Of a DNA stretch of 9,305 nucleotides, positions 1 to 9,305 are shown in pieces. Made by a program: the position numbers and the translations under genes. Position 1 is the first letter of the stretch, and every line of letters starts with the position of its first letter. Source of the stretch: a virus (lineage: Duplodnaviria; Heunggongvirae; Uroviricota; Caudoviricetes); the IMG/VR virus record IMGVR_UViG_2711768006_000002; one strand, written 5' to 3'. The notes under the pieces were generated by a model that made no database searches, was not told the DNA's origin, and saw nothing but the letters and a program-made list of their open reading frames with translations.

Positions 1-12
1 TCCAATGTGCAT

Positions 13-46
13 AAAAAAATCCGGAAACAAGTGAGCGTTTCCGGAT
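13..46 (-). terminator. Intrinsic terminator immediately downstream of the portal gene
   Basis: On the minus strand a perfect 10-bp inverted repeat (plus 19-28 ATCCGGAAAC / 37-46 GTTTCCGGAT) with an 8-nt loop is followed by a T-run (plus A-run 13-18). The portal stop codon is at 80-82. Confidence 0.6.
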
Positions 47-79
47 TCTTACACAGCCACTGGATCGGTCAACTGATCC

Positions 80-1236
80 TTAACTGATCGGCATTACACC
101 ACCGGGACGCGGATTCATATCTTCCAGGTCGCGGCAGTCATTGGAAGAGTAAATTCCCCAGTTGATCCCGGTGGCGTAGGCTTCAAAACGGGACTTCATA
201 TCCCCGCGCAGTAACGCCCCGGCGTTAAATTTGGCGTAATAAACGCCCTGCTTACTTTTTCGTACCAGTCCGGTGTTGATCCGCTGTTCGATGCGGGTCA
301 GATACGGCACCAGTGAATAGTTGATAAATCCCAGCCCCAGCTCTTCGATATTGTTGAAGGTGGCGCGATCGGTGTTCTGCACCATGTGCAACGGCACCCG
401 GAACAGACGACAGATTTCTTCCAGCTGAAACTTGCGGGTTTCCAGGAACTGACTGTCCTCGGCGTTCAGCGCCATCGACTTCCAGTCCAGCCCCATTTCC
501 AGAATCATCGGGCGGTGAGCATTGCCAAGCCCCGTGTGACACTCCTCAAAATCTTTCTTCAGACGCTCGTAAGCATCCGGCGTGAGCTTTTGTTCCGTAC
601 GCAACACACCGGATGTCACCGCACCATTACTAAACAACCTGGCACCGTGCTCCTCGGTTGCCGCTGCCAGTGAAATGGCCTCACGCGCATACGCAATGGG
701 ATTCAGCCCGACAAGTCCATCCAGCGTCAGGGTGCGCACATGCCAGATTTCATTCTGGGTCAACACATCCACGGAACCATCCGGAAACGTCACCTGATAA
801 ACCGGCTGCCACTGGCTGTTCAGCTTCGGTTCCACACAGCCCGGATCTATCGGAAGAAGCTCCACCACTTCTCCCAGTGCCTTTACCTTGTAGGCGTAAA
901 AATTCCCCCGTAGACACAGGCAGACAATAACCAGCTCCCAGAATTCCTGCGGTGTCATGTAGCCATTAGGTTTTGCCGAAACCAACTTATGCAGTCGTTC
1001 ATCCACCGCCCGTGTTTTCAGGGTACCGCTGATTTTGTAGAGACTGCAGGGCAGCATACCAACAGACTCTGCCAGCACCCTGACGCAAGAATAGACCGCC
1101 GTCAGGCGCATGGCCCGCTGGCTACTGATCCGCTTTCCGGTATAGGTGTCGTATGACAGCCCGATAGCATCAGCAGTTCTGCTGGCGTGGTCACCGGCAC
1201 ATCGCTTTTTCGTTGAAATAATCCCGAAAAGAACAC
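80..1236 (-). CDS. Phage portal protein, HK97 family; 5' end apparently frameshifted, start uncertain
   Basis: The 415-aa ORF contains a portal-like core (AMRLTAVYSCVRVLAESVGMLPCSLYK near the N-terminus, NDCRDLEDMNPRPGG at the C-terminus). The ORF-track start at 1327 is a TTG in a TTG-TTG-TTG run with no RBS and overlaps the upstream small ORF by 92 nt. A GTG at 1236-1234 overlaps the upstream stop (TAGTG) and has GGAGGT 5 nt upstream, but it is in another frame that stops at about 1105. The first in-frame ATG is at 1111. Confidence 0.8.
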
Positions 1237-1418
1237 TATTTACCTCCGCCGACAGACTGCCGTGTACGGTCGAGATATCGCGCCACCAGCCACGACCAGA
1301 ACAGGCACAGCGCCCCGGCAACAACAAAACCCGCCGGGGGATAAATCAGCCAGGCACCATACGCCAGCAAAAGCGCACCCAGCACGCCCACCAGAGGCGC
1401 GAGAATCAGCATGATCAT
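1236..1418 (-). CDS. Small membrane protein (60 aa, two predicted transmembrane helices) between large terminase and portal
   Basis: ATG at 1418 with GAGGT 4-5 nt upstream, 11 nt after the large-terminase stop. The product [60 protein letters not shown] is hydrophobic with a basic C-terminus. No homolog recalled. Confidence 0.5.
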
Positions 1419-1429
1419 AATTACCTCAG

Positions 1430-3163
1430 TTAAAGCGAGCGGATCCCGTAGGACTCAATGTGGTCAGACAGCGTGTCTTCTTTCTCGTACAGCATGGCTC
1501 TGCCAACCGCCATAATCAGCGCAACTGCACCATCGATTTTGTTTTCCGCCTGCTCTTTGACGGGTTTCACCACATCATCGTTACCCGGCATGTTTTTGCC
1601 GACCACGTTGCCGATACACCAGGTCATGATGGGATTGCCGTCATGATGAAAACGTCCCGATTCAATCGCTGCTTCCAGCTCTTTCATCGGATCGGACATA
1701 TTGGTGAAGTTCTGGACGATAGTGACGGGATTCAGGTCTTCATCAGCAAGGTCATGTGACAACCCGGTCGCCCCGAAGGGGTCGATGGGTGACTCACTGA
1801 CCGGGCTGATTTTGTTCGCCGCTTTGGCCTCCTCGAGGATGTAGCGATAATCCACCTCCGCACCATCGGTAACGGTCAGAACGCCCATTTCCACCCATTT
1901 CTGAAAGCGTTCGGCTGTCCGTCGATCTTCATTTTTCTCGACGCTGTACACCGTGTCATACGGTACCCAGAAACGCGGGGCCACACTGTAGTAATGCGTT
2001 TTACCGTCAATCTCGCGGGTATAAAGTCGCGCCATGCTGTTCATATCCAGCTTACGCGCCAGGTCAAAGGCCAGAATGCACGGCTGCCCCTCGAACTGCT
2101 CAAGGGTCAGTGATTTATCCTCGCAGCTCTGCCAGCTCACCAAGTTGAAATACGCCGAACGCGCCGACACCCAGATATTGAGGTGTTTTGTTTTAAAGAC
2201 GTTTGCCAGACGGGCGTTATTTTTCGCACGCTGCTGCTGACTTAACAAAAATTCGCGATAAACCGACACGCCAATATTTGGATTGGCTTTTTCCAGCACC
2301 TGCGGGCCGGTCCAGTCGTCACCTTCATCAACGGTATAGATGATCCCGAACAGTTCATCGTTAGGCACCGAGCCGTTGAGCATCTCGATGACTTCCCGCC
2401 GCTTGTCGTAGCACGGCCCCTCAATGTTGTACCCGGCGGTGGTGATGGCCCACATCAGTGGCTGACGTCGCGCCCCCATCCCGGTAAGCATTGTGGTATA
2501 AAGCGCATCGGTGGCATGCTCGTGATATTCATCAACCACGGCACAGTGGGGTGATGAACCATCACCTGGGTTGCCGATCAGCGGTTCAAACCGCGCGCCA
2601 TCCTCCGGACGGTTCATGTTTGAGGCGTTAACCTCAATCCCGAACGCTTCCGTCAGCATGGGTGTGCGTTTACACATCAGTCGCGCCGGGCGAAAGACTT
2701 CCCACGCCTGTTTCTCTGTCGTGGCACCGGAATACACTTCCGCGCCAAACTCGTTATCACAGGCAAAACAATACAGGGCAACACCGGCAGAGATTGCTGA
2801 TTTGCCGTTCTTACGGGGGATTTCGGTGTACACCTCCCGGAAGCGGCGCAACCGGGTGCCTTTATTGACCCAGCCAAACGCACAGCAGATCACAAATAGC
2901 TGCCACGGCTCCAGCGTGATGGGCATCCGTTTGAATGCCCACTCCCCCTTGGTGTGCGGCAACAGCTGAATAAATTTCGCGGCCCGTTCAGCCAGGTCCT
3001 TGTCGAAGCGGTAACGAAACGACTTACTTTTTTCCGCCATCAGGTCATCAAGATGGCGCTGGCAGGCCTGAATCACAAACTGGCAGGCAACAATCTTTCC
3101 GCGCACGACATCCCGGGCATACTGATTTGCAGCATTTACGTTGGGGTAAGATTTCCGGCTCAT
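1430..3163 (-). CDS. Terminase large subunit (Terminase_1 / HK97-like)
   Basis: 577-aa ORF with an ATG at 3163 overlapping the upstream stop (ATGA). It has a Walker-A-like PRKNGKS motif and the overall architecture of large terminases. It lies directly after the small terminase and before the portal. Confidence 0.92.
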
Positions 3164-3654
3164 GATTCGATAATTTTCAGAAACGGGTTAGTGGCTTTCT
3201 TCTGCCCCGCCAGGCCAATCAGACGCTGGCGGCTGCTGGGGTCGAGTCCGAGCATTGCCCCCGTGCTGCTCATCTCGGACTCCTGTTCTTTTTTGGCGGT
3301 CAGCTCCGGATTTTTGACCCTGCCGCCCATTGCACCGGTGATGGTGTTGCCCTGTATGGCAATATTTTTCACGGCACGTCGCCAGAACTCATAGGCCACG
3401 CACCACCGCTCAAGTACCGCCAGGTCAGTCACGCACAGCAGGCCCTGACCGCAGAGTTCTTTGGTTGTCAGTTGCCACATGATCGTGGCGAGAGGGAGAT
3501 CTTCTTCAGCGAACCACTCTGGTGGCTCAACACCTTTGATGGGCGTAAAAACAGGTTCATCTTTGTTCAGGGCTCGCTTGCCGGGGTTTCCGGCCAGCGC
3601 CTTGCGCGCCGTTGGCTTGGGGCGACGCCCGGAACGCCCCGCCGTTCCAGCCAT
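3160..3654 (-). CDS. Terminase small subunit, P27 family
   Basis: The ORF track starts at GTG 3663, but that GTG lies inside the Shine-Dalgarno sequence AGGAGT. The ATG at 3654 is 8 nt downstream of AGGAG and gives [27 protein letters not shown], typical of P27-family small terminases. The stop overlaps the large-terminase start. Confidence 0.88.
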
Positions 3655-3693
3655 ATGCGGCACTCCTGGTTAAATTTCATTTTTCGCGGGTAT

Positions 3694-3753
3694 AAAAAAA
3701 CGATGGGGCGGGCAGTCCGGAAGACGTCAGGTCACAGGGATTTGCCCCGCCCC
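3694..3753 (-). other. GC-rich inverted repeat plus T7 run in the HNH-terS intergenic region; candidate cos/packaging site or terminator-like element
   Basis: Arms at plus 3705-3714 (GGGGCGGGCA) and 3743-3753 (TGCCCCGCCCC) are separated by 28 nt. On the minus strand they are followed by TTTTTTT (plus A-run 3694-3700). In HK97-type phages cos lies between the HNH gene and the small terminase gene. Confidence 0.35.
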
Positions 3754-3775
3754 TCCCTACAAGTGAGAATAATTA

Positions 3776-4126
3776 TCACCGGATTCGTTCGCGCGCTGTT
3801 TTCGCTTTATGGCAGGGCCAGCACAGACTCTGCAGGTTGCTGTCTGCGTCTGTTCCGCCATGCGCTTTCGGGATGATGTGGTCGACGGTTTTCGCCTCGC
3901 TCACCACACCGACACGCAGACACAACTGACACAGACCTTTATCGCGCTTCAGAATACGGGCACGAATCACCGTCCATTTTGAGCCATAGCCACGCTGGTG
4001 GCGGCTCAGTCCGCGCTGGTGCTGCACCCAGCCTTCACCGCGATGTTTATCGCAGTAACCCGAACTGTCTGTGGTTGTACCTGCACATCCACGCTTACGG
4101 CAGGCACGTGGGATTAGTGATGGCAT
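3776..4126 (-). CDS. HNH endonuclease (phage packaging-associated, HK97 gp74-like)
   Basis: 116-aa ORF with ATG at 4126 and GAGGT 5 nt upstream. It is Cys/His-rich with CxxC pairs and an HNH-type motif (DHIIPKAHGGTDADSNLQSLCWPCH). It sits immediately upstream of the small terminase. Confidence 0.88.
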   Translation of the reverse strand: MPSLIPRACRKRGCAGTTTDSSGYCDKHRGEGWVQHQRGLSRHQRGYGSKWTVIRARILKRDKGLCQLCLRVGVVSEAKTVDHIIPKAHGGTDADSNLQSLCWPCHKAKTARERIR

Positions 4127-4168
4127 AAATACCTCATACCCTGCGAAATGTTTACCACGATAAAAAGG

Positions 4169-4411
4169 CTACTTAATGCACTGAGTGCGGATATACTCCT
4201 GTGCCCCTTCCAGTTGCATCTGCATCGTCATCAGCCGCTCTCTGAGGGTGAAATAATCCCGTTCAGCGGTGTCTGCCAGTCGGGGGCTGGTTGCATTATC
4301 CACGCCGGAGGCGGTGGTGGCTTCACGCACTGACTGACAGACTGCTTTGATGTGCAACCGACGACGACCAGCGGCAACATCAGCGCGCAGAGTTTCATTT
4401 TCAGCTTTCGC
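4169..4411 (-). CDS. Rz: Rz i-spanin, C-terminal portion (5' part lost in N run)
   Basis: The visible 80 aa (AKAENETLRADVAAGRRRLHIKAVCQSVREATTASGVDNATSPRLADTAERDYFTLRERLMTMQMQLEGAQEYIRTQCIK) are near-identical to the C-terminal half of lambda Rz as I recall it. Stop TAG at 4169-4171. Confidence 0.88.
   Translation of the reverse strand, partial: AKAENETLRADVAAGRRRLHIKAVCQSVREATTASGVDNATSPRLADTAERDYFTLRERLMTMQMQLEGAQEYIRTQCIK
4231..4398 (-). CDS. Rz1: Rz1 o-spanin lipoprotein embedded in Rz in the +1 frame
   Basis: Product MKLCALMLPLVVVGCTSKQSVSQCVKPPPPPAWIMQPAPDWQTPLNGIISPSESG has a lipobox (VVGC) and a penta-proline tract, matching lambda Rz1. The true start may lie 1-5 codons upstream inside the N run (lambda Rz1 begins MLKLKMM). 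Confidence 0.85.
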   Translation of the reverse strand: MKLCALMLPLVVVGCTSKQSVSQCVKPPPPPAWIMQPAPDWQTPLNGIISPSESG

Positions 4412-4610
4412 NNNNNNNNNNNNNNNNNNNNNNNNNNNNNNNNNNNNNNNNNNNNNNNNNNNNNNNNNNNNNNNNNNNNNNNNNNNNNNNNNNNNNNNNN
4501 NNNNNNNNNNNNNNNNNNNNNNNNNNNNNNNNNNNNNNNNNNNNNNNNNNNNNNNNNNNNNNNNNNNNNNNNNNNNNNNNNNNNNNNNNNNNNNNNNNNN
4601 NNNNNNNNNN
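4412..4610. other. Run of 199 N (assembly gap or masked segment)
   Basis: Continuous N. The flanking reading frames cannot be joined: the endolysin N-terminus is above it and the Rz C-terminus below it, in different frames, with about 600 nt of expected coding sequence unaccounted for. Confidence 0.95.
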
Positions 4611-4700
4611 ACCACCTGGGCCAGTGATTAACACAGATGCTATAGCAACAGCCCCACCACCAATAGCAGCTGCAACAGCCTTGCGTAATGATGGCGACAT
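4611..4700 (-). CDS. R: SAR endolysin (phage 21 R21-like lysozyme), N-terminal 30 codons only
   Basis: ATG at 4700 with GAGGTG 4 nt upstream. The product [30 protein letters not shown] matches the signal-anchor-release domain of phage 21 endolysin. The stop of the upstream holin overlaps the start (TAATG). Confidence 0.8.
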
Positions 4701-4867
4701 TATTCACCTCTCGCAGCCTTACGCTTGTCTTCTCTTATTTTGAAATACAGATTTGTCAGATAAGTCAGAAGCCCCAGAAGCAGACTTCCCAGCACACCAA
4801 TCGCAGCCCACTGTGATGGACTGACCTGATCCAACCACTGCAAAAACCAGTAGCCGGCACTGCCGGC
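4700..4867 (-). CDS. S: Pinholin (phage 21 S21-like class II holin), C-terminal 55 codons; 5' end lost in N run
   Basis: The visible [55 protein letters not shown] is near-identical to the S21 pinholin as recalled. Stop TAA at 4700-4702. Confidence 0.82.
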
Positions 4868-5117
4868 NNNNNNNNNNNNNNNNNNNNNNNNNNNNNNNNN
4901 NNNNNNNNNNNNNNNNNNNNNNNNNNNNNNNNNNNNNNNNNNNNNNNNNNNNNNNNNNNNNNNNNNNNNNNNNNNNNNNNNNNNNNNNNNNNNNNNNNNN
5001 NNNNNNNNNNNNNNNNNNNNNNNNNNNNNNNNNNNNNNNNNNNNNNNNNNNNNNNNNNNNNNNNNNNNNNNNNNNNNNNNNNNNNNNNNNNNNNNNNNNN
5101 NNNNNNNNNNNNNNNNN
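4868..5117. other. Run of 250 N (assembly gap or masked segment)
   Basis: Continuous N lying between the tRNA array and the holin. It hides the holin start (about 16 codons) and roughly 200 nt or more of upstream sequence. Confidence 0.95.
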
Positions 5118-5180
5118 GAGTCAGACATTCCCACACAATATTGTGTCAGTGCAAATAACAACCTTCGTCTCAAATCTCGC

Positions 5181-5255
<75 letters not shown>

Positions 5256-5258
5256 ATA

Positions 5259-5334
<76 letters not shown>

Positions 5335-5336
5335 GC

Positions 5337-5413
5337 TGGCCCACCACCGAGGACTCGAACCTCGCACCGTCAACTTAGAAGGTTGATGCTCTATCCGGAT
5401 GAGCTAGTGGTGG
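5337..5413 (-). tRNA. tRNA-Arg (anticodon UCU, reads AGA/AGG)
   Basis: Reverse complement reads CCACCACTAGCTCATCCGGATAGAGCATCAACCTTCTAAGTTGACGGTGCGAGGTTCGAGTCCTCGGTGGTGGGCCA. Anticodon stem TCAAC/GTTGA, loop CUUCUAA, T-loop TTCGAGT, encoded CCA. Confidence 0.85.
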
Positions 5414-5414
5414 T

Positions 5415-5491
5415 TGGTGGCCCTTGCTGGACTTGAACCAGCGACCTGGCGATTATGAGTCGCTCGCTCTGACCAACTGAGCTAAAGGGCC
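5415..5491 (-). tRNA. tRNA-Ile2-like (anticodon CAU, ileX/ileZ type)
   Basis: Reverse complement reads GGCCCTTTAGCTCAGTTGGTCAGAGCGAGCGACTCATAATCGCCAGGTCGCTGGTTCAAGTCCAGCAAGGGCCACCA. Anticodon loop CUCAUAA. It closely resembles E. coli ileX (minor isoleucine tRNA) rather than tRNA-Met. Confidence 0.85.
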
Positions 5492-5500
5492 GGAGGCAGA

Positions 5501-5529
5501 ATAATAACCATATGTCATCACATCTGCAA
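5501..5529 (-). promoter_or_regulatory. Candidate sigma70 promoter for the tRNA array
   Basis: On the minus strand: -35 TTGCAG (plus 5524-5529), 17-nt spacer, -10 TATTAT (plus 5501-5506), with the tRNA-Ile 5' end about 9 nt downstream. Confidence 0.4.
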
Positions 5530-5579
5530 ACTCATCTGACCACCAGCACGTTTAACGTCCTGTGCCGTTTTTCAGGTAT

Positions 5580-5606
5580 AAAAAAACCCGCTCATCGGCG
5601 GGTTTA
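5580..5606 (-). terminator. Intrinsic terminator downstream of the ORF6N-domain gene
   Basis: On the minus strand: AAACCCGC-CGATGA-GCGGGTTT hairpin (8-bp stem) followed by TTTTTTTAT (plus A-run 5580-5586). Confidence 0.65.
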
Positions 5607-5680
5607 AGCTGTGTGGCGTAGTAACCACTCTTAACAGGATATTCAACTTTTTACGATCGTAAAGTTTTCGGAAAAAATTT

Positions 5681-6250
5681 TTAAAACCGCATCAACCGCT
5701 CCACCAGTTGCTCTTTACGGGCAACGATCCACCCGTGTTGCTCCAGATAAAATTTAAACCGTTCCAGAGTACATACCATCGCATCGGCGGGTACCTTTTC
5801 CGTGAACTCAACCTGACCGTGTTTATCGAAGTGGCTCAGTAATGCGCATCCATCATTTTCGATAGATGTGTTTTGTGCCGCTGGTGGCTGTTTCTGGTTG
5901 AAATAACAGTCTTCCAGTTTTTCGAACACTTCCCACGCCTGATCGGTTTCGAGCATTTTGGCGTGACGGGCTGCGCCACGTTCTGTCCAGAGGATGAGGG
6001 AGCGAACGTTACGGGCAATTTTCACAGAAACTCTTAAAGAGTTTTCGTTCTTCAACTCTCGTAACGCATCACCTTCTATCAGGAAAAAATGTTTACCTTC
6101 TATAAACCGTTCTTTGTTTCGATTGAAATTGTTTGTCAAACGCTGGCGCTCTGTTCCGTACAAATCAGCCAGCAGCTCTGTTGTCATGACAGGAAGATGG
6201 TTATGCGTAAGTGACGGGAGTTTTTCAATAGACGTGCGATTCATAGACAT
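5681..6250 (-). CDS. ORF6N-domain protein (KilA-N/Bro-N-like, phage antirepressor-like), cargo gene between Q and the lysis cassette
   Basis: The 253-aa ORF begins at a GTG with no RBS. The ATG pair at 6250/6244 is preceded by AAAGGA and gives MSMNRTSIEKLPSLTHNHLPVMTTELLADLYGTERQRLTNNFNRNKERFIEGKHFFL, which fits the ORF6N consensus as I recall it (LAELYGV..RLNE..KRN.ERFPEDFMFQL). The C-terminal half is not recognised. Confidence 0.6.
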   Translation of the reverse strand: MSMNRTSIEKLPSLTHNHLPVMTTELLADLYGTERQRLTNNFNRNKERFIEGKHFFLIEGDALRELKNENSLRVSVKIARNVRSLILWTERGAARHAKMLETDQAWEVFEKLEDCYFNQKQPPAAQNTSIENDGCALLSHFDKHGQVEFTEKVPADAMVCTLERFKFYLEQHGWIVARKEQLVERLMRF

Positions 6251-6605
6251 GTCCTTTCGAATATTTTGATTTACCCCTTTTGAGAGGGTGACCGGGCGCT
6301 CAAAACCGTCGAAAGTCGGCGGGCGTATTTCCATTGCTGGTATTGTATTAGCCGCACACCCGGTCATAAACCAAGAATTCTGGACACAAAAAAACCACAT
6401 GGCTATCGGGTGTGGATACCGCTTTCGAGGTGTTTTGAGCACCGCGGGGAAATGTAAACTGCAAACCTGAAACTGTCAACACCGTCAGGTTCCAATCATC
6501 GGGTGGTGAGACGCACAGGGTTGGAACTACCGGGAAACCGACCGGCGAGCTTTTCAGCTCCCCCATGCGCCCCACCATAATTCAGATGTGCGCGTGCATA
6601 CGACA

Positions 6606-6630
6606 ATAAAAAACACGCTCGCGGCGTGTG
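6606..6630 (-). terminator. Candidate tR' (late-operon terminator read through by Q-modified polymerase)
   Basis: On the minus strand: ACACGC-CGCGA-GCGTGT hairpin followed by TTTTTTATTG (plus A-run 6608-6613), about 75 nt downstream of the candidate pR' start site. Confidence 0.5.
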
Positions 6631-6690
6631 TCTGTCGCGGTCTCTATCCGGGGTTCCAATCCCGACGCCAGATTTTGCTGGCGCGTGAGG

Positions 6691-6720
6691 AATATAGCCC
6701 CGGACAATGTGTCTGGTCAA
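6691..6720 (-). promoter_or_regulatory. Candidate late promoter pR' with Q-utilisation region
   Basis: On the minus strand, 5 nt after the Q stop: -35 TTGACC (plus 6715-6720), 18-nt spacer, -10 TATATT (plus 6691-6696). Position immediately downstream of Q matches lambdoid pR'. Confidence 0.55.
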
Positions 6721-6724
6721 GCAC

Positions 6725-7111
6725 CTACATAATTCGTTCTACGTATCTGTCCATCTCCAGCCGGATATCAAGCATCATCAACATGCCATCAATAACCCCT
6801 TCCGCTTTCTGCAGGCGCTTGCCAATACAGGTATCCGAACACCCATGTTTCCGTGCCAGACTCATAAAAGTCATTCCACCTACGTAATAATCCACCAGCA
6901 AATCGTGCAAATCCTGATTTTTCTTGTTCAACCGGGCCATACAGCCACAAATTATCATTGCATCATCATCAGAACACTGAGGGCGTGATTTCACTTTCGA
7001 CGGAATTAACCCTTTAAAACCAGCAGCGATCGACGCCCAGGATACATCTTCATGAGTGTTTGCAGCCCAAGCCCCCCACCGTTCCATAACCTGCTGAATA
7101 TCACGCGCCAT
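6725..7111 (-). CDS. Q: Late-gene antitermination protein Q (phage 82/21-type)
   Basis: ATG at 7111 with AGGTGA 6 nt upstream, overlapping the rusA 3' end. Product [61 protein letters not shown] matches the Q family found in E. coli prophages. Confidence 0.9.
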
Positions 7112-7472
7112 CGTTATCACCTGTGATTTCATAAATCTTCACGCCCAGTCGCCCACCAGGAACGAGCTGACCGCGCACAATATTGATTTCATCAAACTGC
7201 TCGTCGTCTATGAGTAGTCCGGCATGCGTCAGCGCATCCAGTGGTGCTTTCAGGATATTGTCCAGGTCACGACGGCGCTTATCCGGTGGCTCTGCAATAA
7301 TCTTTATCGCCAGCCTTCCGGACAGGTTTAATTTCAGCCGCTGCTGGCGAACAATTAGCGTCACATCACGGCGATAACGCTCACCAACTTTTGATACAAA
7401 ATATGTGCTGCCACGACGTCGCCAGTAAGTATTCACCGTCGGCGGATAAGGTAAAATAAACTCATGGCGCAT
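7101..7472 (-). CDS. rusA: RusA-family Holliday junction resolvase
   Basis: 123-aa ORF with ATG at 7472 overlapping the upstream stop (TGATG). It has the RusA-like catalytic region [29 protein letters not shown]. Its position just upstream of Q is typical of the nin region. Confidence 0.88.
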
Positions 7473-7714
7473 CAGCGCAGCACCTCCTGCACCATTTTTT
7501 CAAACTTTCCAACTTTGGTTTCCAGCTCTGCCACACAATCAACGAGCTCATCCACCGCTTTTTGTGCGCGATGTTTCGCCTGCATCAGTTCCCTGAGCGC
7601 TGGCACCATATCCCGACGAATGGCATCTTTTGTTACACCTGTTTTTTCCAGTTGTTCCGCCTGTCGCAACATTTCCTGCGCGTGTTTACGCAATTGTTCA
7701 GAGGTAAAAGTCAT
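7472..7714 (-). CDS. Hypothetical 80-aa protein, predicted helical/coiled-coil, nin-region
   Basis: ATG at 7714 (the ORF track begins at an upstream TTG), 12 nt after the helicase stop. Product MTFTSEQLRKHAQEMLRQAEQLEKTGVTKDAIRRDMVPALRELMQAKHRAQKAVDELVDCVAELETKVGKFEKMVQEVLR is charged with heptad-like spacing. No family recognised. Confidence 0.6.
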   Translation of the reverse strand: MTFTSEQLRKHAQEMLRQAEQLEKTGVTKDAIRRDMVPALRELMQAKHRAQKAVDELVDCVAELETKVGKFEKMVQEVLR

Positions 7715-7725
7715 TGTCTGGTTGT

Positions 7726-9117
7726 TCAAAAGAAACGCTCCATCTTACTGCTGTCGGTACGTGTATTGCTGTATCTGCGCGGCTGGGGCTGCCGCATTGG
7801 GGTGGAAAGAACCTGTGCGCTTTCCTGGTCCACAGGCAGAAAATGTCCGTTATAAAAACGCCGGTAAATCGTCCCCAGAGAACCGTTACGTTGTTTCGTG
7901 ATATTAATTTCTGCTATGCCTGTAGCCTGTGTATCCGGGTTGTACACTTCATCCCTGTAAAGCATCAGAATGATGTCTGCATCCGCCTCTATTTCTCCGG
8001 AATTTTTCAGGTCTGAGTTCATGGGACGTTTATTGGGTCTGGACTCCACACCGCGGGAGAGCTGGCTCAGCGCAATCAACGGAAAACCACCGGATTTTGC
8101 CAGGCCTTTAAGCCCCTTTGAGATTTCACCCACGGCAAGGTCATGACGCCCCGTGGTTCGGGTTTTTATCAGCCCGAGATAATCAACCACCACCAGCGCC
8201 GTTTCCGGATGTTTAATCAGATGGTGTTTCGTTGTTGCGCATATCTCATCAATGGTCAGGTTCGCCTGGTCCACCATCCAGATATTGCGCCCGGTCATCC
8301 GCCCCACCCCTTGTGAGAAACGCGCCCAGTCTTCATCTTCAAAGTGAGCCACAGATTTCAGGCGTGATACTGGCATCCCTCCAGCCGCAGACACCATACG
8401 TTCACCAATCTGGATGTTCGCCATCTCCATGGTGAACAGAAGCACACCATGCCCCTGCTCAGTCACCTTGTCGATGATGTCCAGCGCAAGTTCGGTTTTC
8501 CCCATCGAAGGACGGGCGGCAATGAATACCAGGTCTCCGGGCTCCATACCGCCTGTTTTTGCGTCCAGTTCATCAATACCGGTCATCAACGTCCTGGATT
8601 TCTCCAGCCCCTGATTCCGGCATTCAACACGCTCAACCACTTCCGGAAGCACATCATCAATATGTACCGGCTGAATGACGCCCTTTCCTGTCGACAGTGT
8701 GACCATCATGTTCTGCGCATCCTTCAGGGCATCTTCAGCTGCTTCACAGGTATGCGCATCACGTAATTTCTGCAGCGCCTCATTCAGTGTTTTTTCTGCA
8801 TCGCGCAGTGCGGCATTGCGCCGCAACGCTGCAACATAGTGCTCCAGTGAAGACTTCACCCAGGTTTTACGCCCGGTATCAGTAATCACCGGGGCAAGTT
8901 CCGGCATCTCATTACACAACAGCACGGGGTCAATCACTCCTGAAACACGGGCCTGTCTGCAGATGCCTGTGTAGATATCCCGATACGCTCGTACAGAAAA
9001 AATGTCCGCCGGTAGTGTGATCAGAATATCCATCACTTCATGATCTGCCCCACGCAGAAAGAATGCGCCAATGACAGCGCCTTCCAGGTCATCATTACGC
9101 CAGACTGGTGTTGTCAT
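7726..9117 (-). CDS. Replicative DNA helicase, DnaB family (phage-encoded)
   Basis: The ORF track starts at GTG 9258. The ATG at 9117 is preceded by AGAGGTG and gives MTTPVWRNDDLEGAVIGAFFL, a DnaB-like N-terminal domain. Walker A (FIAARPSMGKTELAL) and DnaB-like C-terminal motifs are present. Confidence 0.9.
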   Translation of the reverse strand: MTTPVWRNDDLEGAVIGAFFLRGADHEVMDILITLPADIFSVRAYRDIYTGICRQARVSGVIDPVLLCNEMPELAPVITDTGRKTWVKSSLEHYVAALRRNAALRDAEKTLNEALQKLRDAHTCEAAEDALKDAQNMMVTLSTGKGVIQPVHIDDVLPEVVERVECRNQGLEKSRTLMTGIDELDAKTGGMEPGDLVFIAARPSMGKTELALDIIDKVTEQGHGVLLFTMEMANIQIGERMVSAAGGMPVSRLKSVAHFEDEDWARFSQGVGRMTGRNIWMVDQANLTIDEICATTKHHLIKHPETALVVVDYLGLIKTRTTGRHDLAVGEISKGLKGLAKSGGFPLIALSQLSRGVESRPNKRPMNSDLKNSGEIEADADIILMLYRDEVYNPDTQATGIAEINITKQRNGSLGTIYRRFYNGHFLPVDQESAQVLSTPMRQPQPRRYSNTRTDSSKMERFF

Positions 9118-9305
9118 GCAGCCACACCTCTGATACAAGAACGGTAGCTGGGCCAGTTGAACGACAACCAGTTGCGCCCCCCGTCTGTGATCCTGTCGGC
9201 AATGCGGGGGCTGATGAACGCTGGATTTGCCCCTATATTTCCAGACACCTGTTATCACTTAACCCATTACTGGCTTGCTGCCGTAGATATTCCCGTGGCG
9301 AGCGA

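Follow-up and report, generated by a model that had tools for sequence, protein, structure and literature searches.

Clustered Chi octamers between the replication genes and cos of a lambdoid prophage remnant in Shigella sonnei Ss046

The DNA considered here is a 9,305-nucleotide viral stretch (Caudoviricetes; IMG/VR record IMGVR_UViG_2711768006_000002), referred to at its whole length as the window. It carries six copies of the Chi octamer recognised by the host enzyme RecBCD, GCTGGTGG, and these are quite probably the legacy of a Chi-rich phage lineage. The window is 100% identical to DNA of the S. sonnei Ss046 chromosome (CP000038.1, locus 2,927,563–2,949,095, at ~2.93 Mb), where its gene for a DnaB-like protein is encoded. 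It is a defective lambda-like prophage remnant of ~10 kb with an insertion sequence (IS) element at both borders (Table 1): an IS4 element cuts the portal gene, and an IS3-family element deletes all DNA upstream of the helicase. The remnant contains no replication initiator, immunity region, early-left operon, integrase, or head or tail genes, carries no stx or gtr cargo, and is a dead element in S. sonnei Ss046. Extending the analysis to a whole prophage is ruled out by the IS elements that stand on both sides in the source locus.

All genes of the remnant lie on the minus strand. Read from high to low coordinates, they encode DnaB, an 85-residue open reading frame (ORF), RusA, Q, ORF6N, tRNAs, the lysis proteins and HNH, followed by cos, the small (TerS) and large (TerL) terminase subunits, a 60-residue membrane protein, and the portal protein. 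The series DnaB–RusA–Q–lysis–HNH–cos–TerS–TerL–portal within this arrangement is the lambdoid order of replication, nin/Q, lysis, cos, terminase, and head.

Two runs of N interrupt the window, and both are shorter than the DNA that they mask: 199 N (4412–4610) stand in place of 626 bp of source, and 250 N (4868–5117) in place of 665 bp. The true span of the window in the source is 10,147 bp, and window coordinates understate distances across the lysis region by 842 bp. A pattern search of the window returned exactly six GCTGGTGG, two on the plus strand (3994–4001 and 5880–5887) and four on the minus strand (1283–1290, 5540–5547, 6892–6899, and 8190–8197); in the unmasked source locus, no Chi lies under either N run and none in ~11.5 kb of host and IS flanks. 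An earlier reading of the letters alone (the sequence-only reading) had reported six Chi in about 8.9 kb, and its count, coordinates, and strands stand, with the length corrected to the true span. Three of the sites, those in DnaB, Q, and the membrane-protein ORF, read xxG-CTG-GTG-Gxx in frame on the coding strand; one is intergenic, and two are antisense.

Positions 3705–3714 (GGGGCGGGCA, the reverse complement of TGCCCGCCCC) align with the annotated cos-site of phage phiP27, CGCCCGCCCC (NC_003356.1, 21806–21815), which sits between the HNH and small-terminase genes of that phage. The genome records of SfIV, SfI, and SfII begin or end here, the SfIV record ending ~10 nucleotides from the cos core. 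With HNH, cos, P27-family TerS, and TerL in order around a conserved core, the module is of the P27/HK97 cos packaging type, and the candidate cos end that had been placed near 3700 is borne out. The stretch from HNH to TerS is conserved in phiP27, SfII, and SfIV as well, and an imperfect inverted partner of the core, TGCCCCGCCCC, lies ~30 bp away (window 3705–3750).

In lambda, terminase keeps to the terminase-gene side after cutting (PMC12315714), and because of this the free end would, by analogy, be the one on the HNH/lysis side. RecBCD entering there would move toward higher coordinates, and the strand ending 3′ at the free end is the minus strand, so the sites at 5540, 6892, and 8190 would be in the active orientation (2.68, 4.03, and 5.33 kb from cos in the unmasked source); the plus-strand pair (3994 and 5880) has the opposite, inactive orientation with respect to cos entry. 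The sequence-only reading had the minus-strand sites above 5000 facing an enzyme that travels from the cos end through the lysis, Q, and replication genes, and this geometry is upheld. Five of the six Chi cluster from the replication genes to cos, in an interval that spans 6.3 kb of the source from cos to the helicase. For this element, both RecBCD entry at the free cos end and activity of the Chi sites are what we infer from the lambda precedent.

Table 1. Features of the window (coordinates in the window; strand given where assigned)
Feature	Position	Strand	Evidence and remarks
IS4 element end, truncates portal gene, left border	1–104		IS4-like annotation match from source-locus ~19997 on; next gene Pfam Nterm_IS4/DDE_Tnp_1; phage homology begins 97–111
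Portal protein gene, 3′ end cut by IS4	105–1327	-	Pfam Phage_portal, E = 3e-107
60-residue membrane protein gene, holds Chi no. 1	1236–1418	-	phrog_502 membrane protein, E = 3e-28; annotated in SfII and phiP27
Chi no. 1, membrane ORF	1283–1290	-	Sense strand, Leu-Val frame (W-L-V-A); packaging side of cos; 2,423 bp after cos
Terminase large subunit	1430–3163	-	Pfam TerL_ATPase and TerL_nuclease
Terminase small subunit (P27 family)	3160–3663	-	Pfam Terminase_4, E = 4e-20; 'P27 family' label in E. coli genomes
cos core GGGGCGGGCA (gene strand TGCCCGCCCC)	3705–3714		Aligns with annotated phiP27 cos-site CGCCCGCCCC
HNH endonuclease beside cos, HK97/P27-type packaging accessory	3776–4126	-	Pfam HNH, E = 2e-16
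Chi no. 2, HNH	3994–4001	+	Antisense, codons R-H-Q-R; inactive orientation for cos-end entry
Lysis cassette (Rz spanin, lysozyme, holin), mostly under N masks	4169–5173	-	Pfam Phage_lysis, Phage_lysozyme, and Phage_holin_2_1 on unmasked source
Four phage tRNA genes: Gly-UCC, Thr-UGU, Arg-UCU, CAU anticodon	5181–5491	-	ARAGORN
Chi no. 3, intergenic (ORF6N gene/tRNA array)	5540–5547	-	First active-orientation Chi from the cos end
ORF6N/anti-repressor-like gene	5681–6442	-	Pfam ORF6N; phrog_2379 anti-repressor
Chi no. 4, ORF6N	5880–5887	+	Antisense (Q-P-P-A); inactive orientation
Antiterminator Q	6725–7132	-	Pfam Phage_antitermQ, E = 3e-52
Chi no. 5, Q	6892–6899	-	Sense, Leu-Val frame (D-L-L-V-D); active orientation
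RusA Holliday-junction resolvase	7101–7472	-	Pfam RusA
85-residue ORF of unknown function	7472–7729	-	phrog_2565
DnaB-like replicative helicase	7726–9117	-	Pfam DnaB_C, E = 1e-72; ATG at 9117, protein start MTTPVWRNDD
Chi no. 6, DnaB	8190–8197	-	Sense, Leu-Val frame (A-L-V-V); active orientation; orthologous to phiP27 Chi at 13066
IS3-family (IS2-like, 1.34 kb) element end, right border	9209–9305		99% match to annotated IS3-family transposase elements; HTH_Tnp_1 and rve ORFs

The excess of Chi over composition is real, and the excess over host DNA is weak. Chance had been estimated to supply about 0.3 Chi, a figure that composition bears out with 0.36 (mononucleotide model) to 0.48 (the mean of dinucleotide shuffles, in which the maximum was 3 and none of 200 reached six). 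Markov expectations rise to 0.92 in the trinucleotide model, for an observed-to-expected ratio (O/E) of 6.5, and to 2.2 in the pentanucleotide model. A codon-shuffle null was also applied, in which synonymous codons are shuffled with every protein sequence and the pooled codon usage held fixed: coding DNA of the remnant contains five Chi vs 1.27 expected (P = 0.003, O/E 3.9), two of the five being antisense vs 0.26 expected. Chi density is ~0.6/kb over the remnant (~2.7 times the host mean) and 0.79/kb from cos to the IS element, with the host at 0.19–0.22/kb. A simple Poisson model at this host mean gives P(≥6) of 0.012–0.023 and was discarded as too generous, since host windows are over-dispersed.

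Enrichment of the same region is found in three intact relatives. Phage phiP27 has 17 Chi in 42.6 kb, with 12 in the 12.4 kb from the replication genes to cos (seven top strand, five bottom); SfII has 14 in its genome, nine of them in the corresponding 8.3 kb (7:2 top:bottom), and SfIV has 11, with seven in 8.7 kb (6:1). Under the codon shuffle, the replication-to-cos counts are 11 vs 1.24 expected in phiP27, nine vs 1.65 in SfII, and six vs 1.43 in SfIV, and in none of the three did any of 300 shuffles match the observed number. The same null revealed no significant Chi excess in the structural and integrase regions of these genomes. Individual sites are shared as well: the DnaB Chi of the remnant recurs at the same offset (920 nucleotides) in the phiP27 helicase, the HNH Chi (3994–4001) is common to phiP27 and eight IMG/VR loci, and the membrane-ORF Chi (1283–1290) is conserved in nearly all relatives. 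Judged by these shared positions, at least three of the six Chi (the DnaB, HNH, and membrane-ORF sites) are older than the remnant.

A protein scan of IMG/VR for the small terminase yielded 80 loci with TerS at least 98% identical, each taken with up to 10 kb on either side, and cos was identifiable in 77. These 77 loci hold 0.82 Chi/kb upstream of cos (379 top, 119 bottom; 76% in the active orientation) vs 0.28/kb downstream (186 top, 2 bottom). ORF-aware shuffles of 15 loci set 101 top-strand sense Chi upstream against 23.0 expected and 35 bottom-strand antisense Chi against 4.0; downstream, the figures are 39 vs 14.8 for sense and 0 vs 1.6 for antisense. Because many loci share modules, Chi were de-replicated into site families per non-redundant kb. 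A full 10 kb upstream was available for 47 loci, and their counts are bimodal, 37 having 5–16 Chi and ten having 0–3; non-redundant DNA of the Chi-rich class totals 69.8 kb with 36 site families (0.52/kb), and that of the Chi-poor class 63.8 kb with six (0.094/kb). Greedy de-replication of all upstream DNA (0.25 Chi/kb) proved misleading, with Chi-poor loci dominating the unique sequence and shared sites masked. The Ss046 remnant, at 0.79/kb from cos to the IS element, fits the Chi-rich class, and one locus (L037) has a Chi pattern identical to it.

The Chi-poor loci might have been truncated prophages, a suggestion ruled out by locus L087, which has no Chi in 10 kb and an ordinary DnaB–NinB–Dam–NinG–phosphatase–Q late region. 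A locus with genes of the same types can thus be Chi-free, and codon usage in an enteric host does not by itself impose Chi on them.

Two observations on single sites arose from the same loci. A palindromic double Chi, CCACCAGCTGGTGG, in which Chi on both strands overlap by two nucleotides, occurs ~2–3.4 kb upstream of cos in 12 IMG/VR loci (e.g., L044, L055, L064, L068, L071, L077, L078, and L086). A portal-gene Chi kept by most relatives 2,779 bp after cos is absent from the window, which reads GCTGGTTA at ~928–935 (minus strand), an equivalence estimated from the distance to cos with no alignment; the remnant or its lineage seems to be without this conserved site.

Upstream of cos, Chi in the inactive orientation are also more frequent than in the host: after de-replication, the Chi-rich class has nine such site families in 69.8 kb (0.13/kb) vs a host antisense density of ~0.04/kb in coding DNA, and downstream of cos they are nearly absent. 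The published model of entry at cos leaves this enrichment unexplained. Across the terminase family, the enrichment from replication genes to cos in both orientations might reflect a second RecBCD entry route that is guarded against, a tentative and rather doubtful proposal drawn from about nine independent sites. RecBCD might enter at a break close to ori, or where a rightward rolling-circle tail has its free end, and from there head to cos.

The pattern has precedents in print. A statistical analysis of 275 lambdoid genomes, in which orientation was left out, found Chi to be over-represented in recombinase-less lambdoids (median O/E 3.1 vs 2.3 in E. coli) and concentrated between the replication genes (ori) and terminase/cos in Rec- lambdoids, with Chi avoided by phages that have a RecBCD inhibitor (Bobay, Touchon & Rocha, PLoS Genet 2013; PMC3784561). 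Phage LLS, which has no Rec module, has 23 Chi, 20 of which are active for RecBCD entering the right cos end and are clustered near that end; LLS growth is enhanced by RecBCD, and among 68 Rec-module-less lambdoids of Enterobacteriales, 62 have at least eight Chi in the active orientation (Zheng, Casjens, Davidson, Amundsen & Smith, Genome Res 2025; PMC12315714). The hypothesis of the sequence-only reading, its proposed checks, and its plaque test are thus already published, and its remark that lambda itself lacks Chi agrees with both papers, which describe wild-type lambda as Chi-free (PMC3784561, PMC12315714).

Pfam and PHROG scans detected no Gam, Abc2, or recombinase family in the remnant, an absence that is uninformative given the IS deletion of the early-left region. 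In phiP27, SfII, and SfIV, the early-left ORFs that were scanned include several of unknown function, and none matched a PHROG recombinase or Gam; this is an absence of known families and not proof of absence. Taken together, the evidence makes it quite probable that the Chi came down to the remnant, where they are now fossilised, from a Chi-rich lineage of lambdoids that had no Rec module or RecBCD inhibitor and used host RecBCD, Chi, and RecA; the Rec-less state of this ancestor is what we infer. The general idea of a Gam-less phage using Chi, as advanced in the sequence-only reading, fits the intact relatives and both published studies (PMC3784561, PMC12315714), and what falls away is a host-separable excess in the window alone.

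How such sites would work in a living phage of the class is suggested by lambda genetics together with both studies (PMC3784561, PMC12315714). Terminase and its HNH partner would cut cos and remain on the terminase-gene side, leaving the other end (HNH, lysis, Q side) free for host RecBCD. The enzyme would unwind and degrade DNA inward until it met 5′-GCTGGTGG-3′ on the strand ending 3′ there, which in the remnant would mean the minus-strand sites at 5540, 6892, and 8190. Chi would then convert RecBCD from degradation to RecA loading, and the saved end would recombine with a sister copy, which would help to form the concatemers required for packaging. In the dead remnant, the Chi act as ordinary chromosomal Chi only.

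Several results weigh against so specific an origin. Since the early region is deleted, the remnant itself cannot be classed as Rec+ or Rec-, and among the 77 related loci its exact replication–Q module is present in only two. On the coding strand, three of the four 'active' Chi amount to ordinary Leu-Val codons in the frame xxG-CTG-GTG-Gxx. Applied to 150 kb of E. coli K-12, the same codon-shuffle null gives an O/E of 2.19 (sense 2.13, antisense 2.49), and with the codon-shuffle expectation scaled by the host factor, P comes to 0.12 from cos to the helicase and to 0.47 on the packaging side. Two of 15 non-overlapping 10-kb K-12 windows also have six Chi (counts 2, 2, 2, 6, 6 / 1, 1, 0, 0, 3 / 0, 2, 0, 3, 0), and one K-12 50-kb segment, which has two 10-kb windows with six, reaches an O/E of 3.6. 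For this window alone, then, the Chi excess over host DNA is not significant. Nor is there a strong orientation bias: the active:inactive ratio is 3:2 on the cos-to-replication side and 4:2 overall (binomial P ~0.7–1.0), no different from 50% or from the ~75% share of Chi that the host has on its leading strand. Density and strand bias like those of the host under codon control had been named as grounds for giving up the claim, and the window by itself comes close to them; for the phage family as a whole, the claim holds.

These results are what would be expected of host-like background, in which codon usage (CTG-GTG, Leu-Val) and a host-wide, patchy over-representation of Chi produce an upper-tail window with nothing phage-specific, and the 4:2 split agrees with the leading/coding-strand bias of the host. 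Such an origin is nonetheless unlikely: same-terminase relatives with similar genes split into Chi-rich and Chi-free loci (L087 being the example), structural genes of the same phages, on the same strand, have a host-like O/E (2.6; ~1.6–2.5) vs 4.4–8.8 upstream of cos, and one of the six Chi in the remnant is intergenic and two are antisense, where 0.26 would be expected. The cos-active strand is also the coding strand of every gene in the remnant, and by K-12 synteny (glaH/csiD, ygaQ, ypjB) the locus probably belongs to the left replichore, its genes being transcribed in the direction of fork movement and four of the six Chi probably pointing as host Chi usually do, on the leading strand. Explanations of strand choice by cos activity, by coding, and by host leading strand are confounded because all three would then be one strand. 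This placement suits a host-driven gain after prophage death, in which Chi were gained or kept for repair of collapsed forks and their orientation follows host replication: the genes run with the presumed fork, the four minus-strand Chi would be leading-strand, and IS-laden cryptic prophages may collect Chi as the ordinary chromosome does (PMC12315714), a further caution for the phage-lineage origin. Gain of this kind is improbable, with at least three of the six Chi shared with free phages or other prophages and so older than the remnant, and with the flanking 11.5 kb of host and IS DNA free of Chi. Pure chance clustering of the octamer, which is favoured by this being a single window picked after the fact, scarcely deserves credence when no dinucleotide shuffle exceeded three Chi, the codon shuffle yields P = 0.003, and the pattern repeats in relatives.

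Some further details of the map may be recorded. A 510-residue 'DnaB' ORF reaching 9258 is artefactually long: the PHROG match takes in residues from 48 onward, and the true start codon is the ATG at 9117. Before it, within 9118–9258, comes the 3′ stump of the next gene upstream, which the IS3-family element interrupts at ~9209 and which in phiP27 encodes a DnaC-like loader. The phage tRNA with a CAU anticodon (5415–5491, minus strand), called Met by ARAGORN, is 92% identical to a host tRNA at source-locus 3612–3688, which by K-12 synteny (ypjC–ileY–ygaQ) is ileY, tRNA-Ile(CAU); the phiP27 annotation at the equivalent genome position of the tRNA array gives ileZ and argO. By this resemblance, the phage tRNA is probably tRNA-Ile2 reading AUA codons, beside the Arg-UCU tRNA for AGA. 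From the tRNA array to the holin, source-locus 14142–14759 (under the mask at 4868–5117) is ~0.6 kb without a convincing ORF, a slot that the stx2e genes fill in phiP27.

The Chi cluster is a known feature, and the remnant adds one more natural example of a published rule in a Shigella prophage fossil with P27/SfII-type packaging genes: lambdoids with a Rec or anti-RecBCD module avoid Chi, and those without one load the interval from replication genes to cos with Chi. In the IS-rich chromosomes of Shigella, prophage fragments rich in Chi are an added source of recombination hotspots. Loci that share one terminase yet divide sharply into Chi-rich and Chi-free provide a natural panel for testing how far Chi is selected in phages.

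Among known systems, the Rec- Inh- lambdoids (PMC3784561) share with the remnant the cluster between replication genes and terminase, the trinucleotide O/E being 6.5 here vs a median of 3.1; theirs is a statistic over 275 genomes, whereas the remnant is a single locus. The chi+ mutants of lambda red gam (Lam 1974; Henderson & Weil 1975; Kobayashi 1982, cited in PMC12315714) offer the likeness of RecBCD entry at the free right cos end, with one Chi orientation active and Chi rescuing growth without Gam or Red. They are, however, laboratory mutants with one or a few Chi, whereas those of the remnant are natural, multiple, and include two in the inactive orientation. The LLS class (PMC12315714) resembles the remnant in its lambdoid late order, in its high Chi density at the cos-proximal right end, and in having most Chi on the top (late-gene sense) strand; the intact relatives of the remnant likewise have no detectable recombinase or Gam. 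Unlike that class, the remnant is an IS-truncated piece of ~10 kb known from sequence alone, with its early region gone and four active Chi to two inactive, and its relatives are of the P27/SfII type (HK97-like terminase with HNH, contractile tail) and not of the lambda type. Also close are phiP27, an Stx2e phage, and the Shigella serotype-converting phages SfII, SfIV, and SfI. These differ in being complete, inducible genomes of 38–43 kb, in the Q–ORF6N–tRNA–lysis segment, which in the remnant is a different mosaic, and in the stx or gtr cargo that the remnant does without; they share with it a packaging module at 87–95% DNA identity, the same cos core and HNH–cos–TerS layout, a DnaB helicase with an orthologous Chi, and the same regional Chi enrichment.

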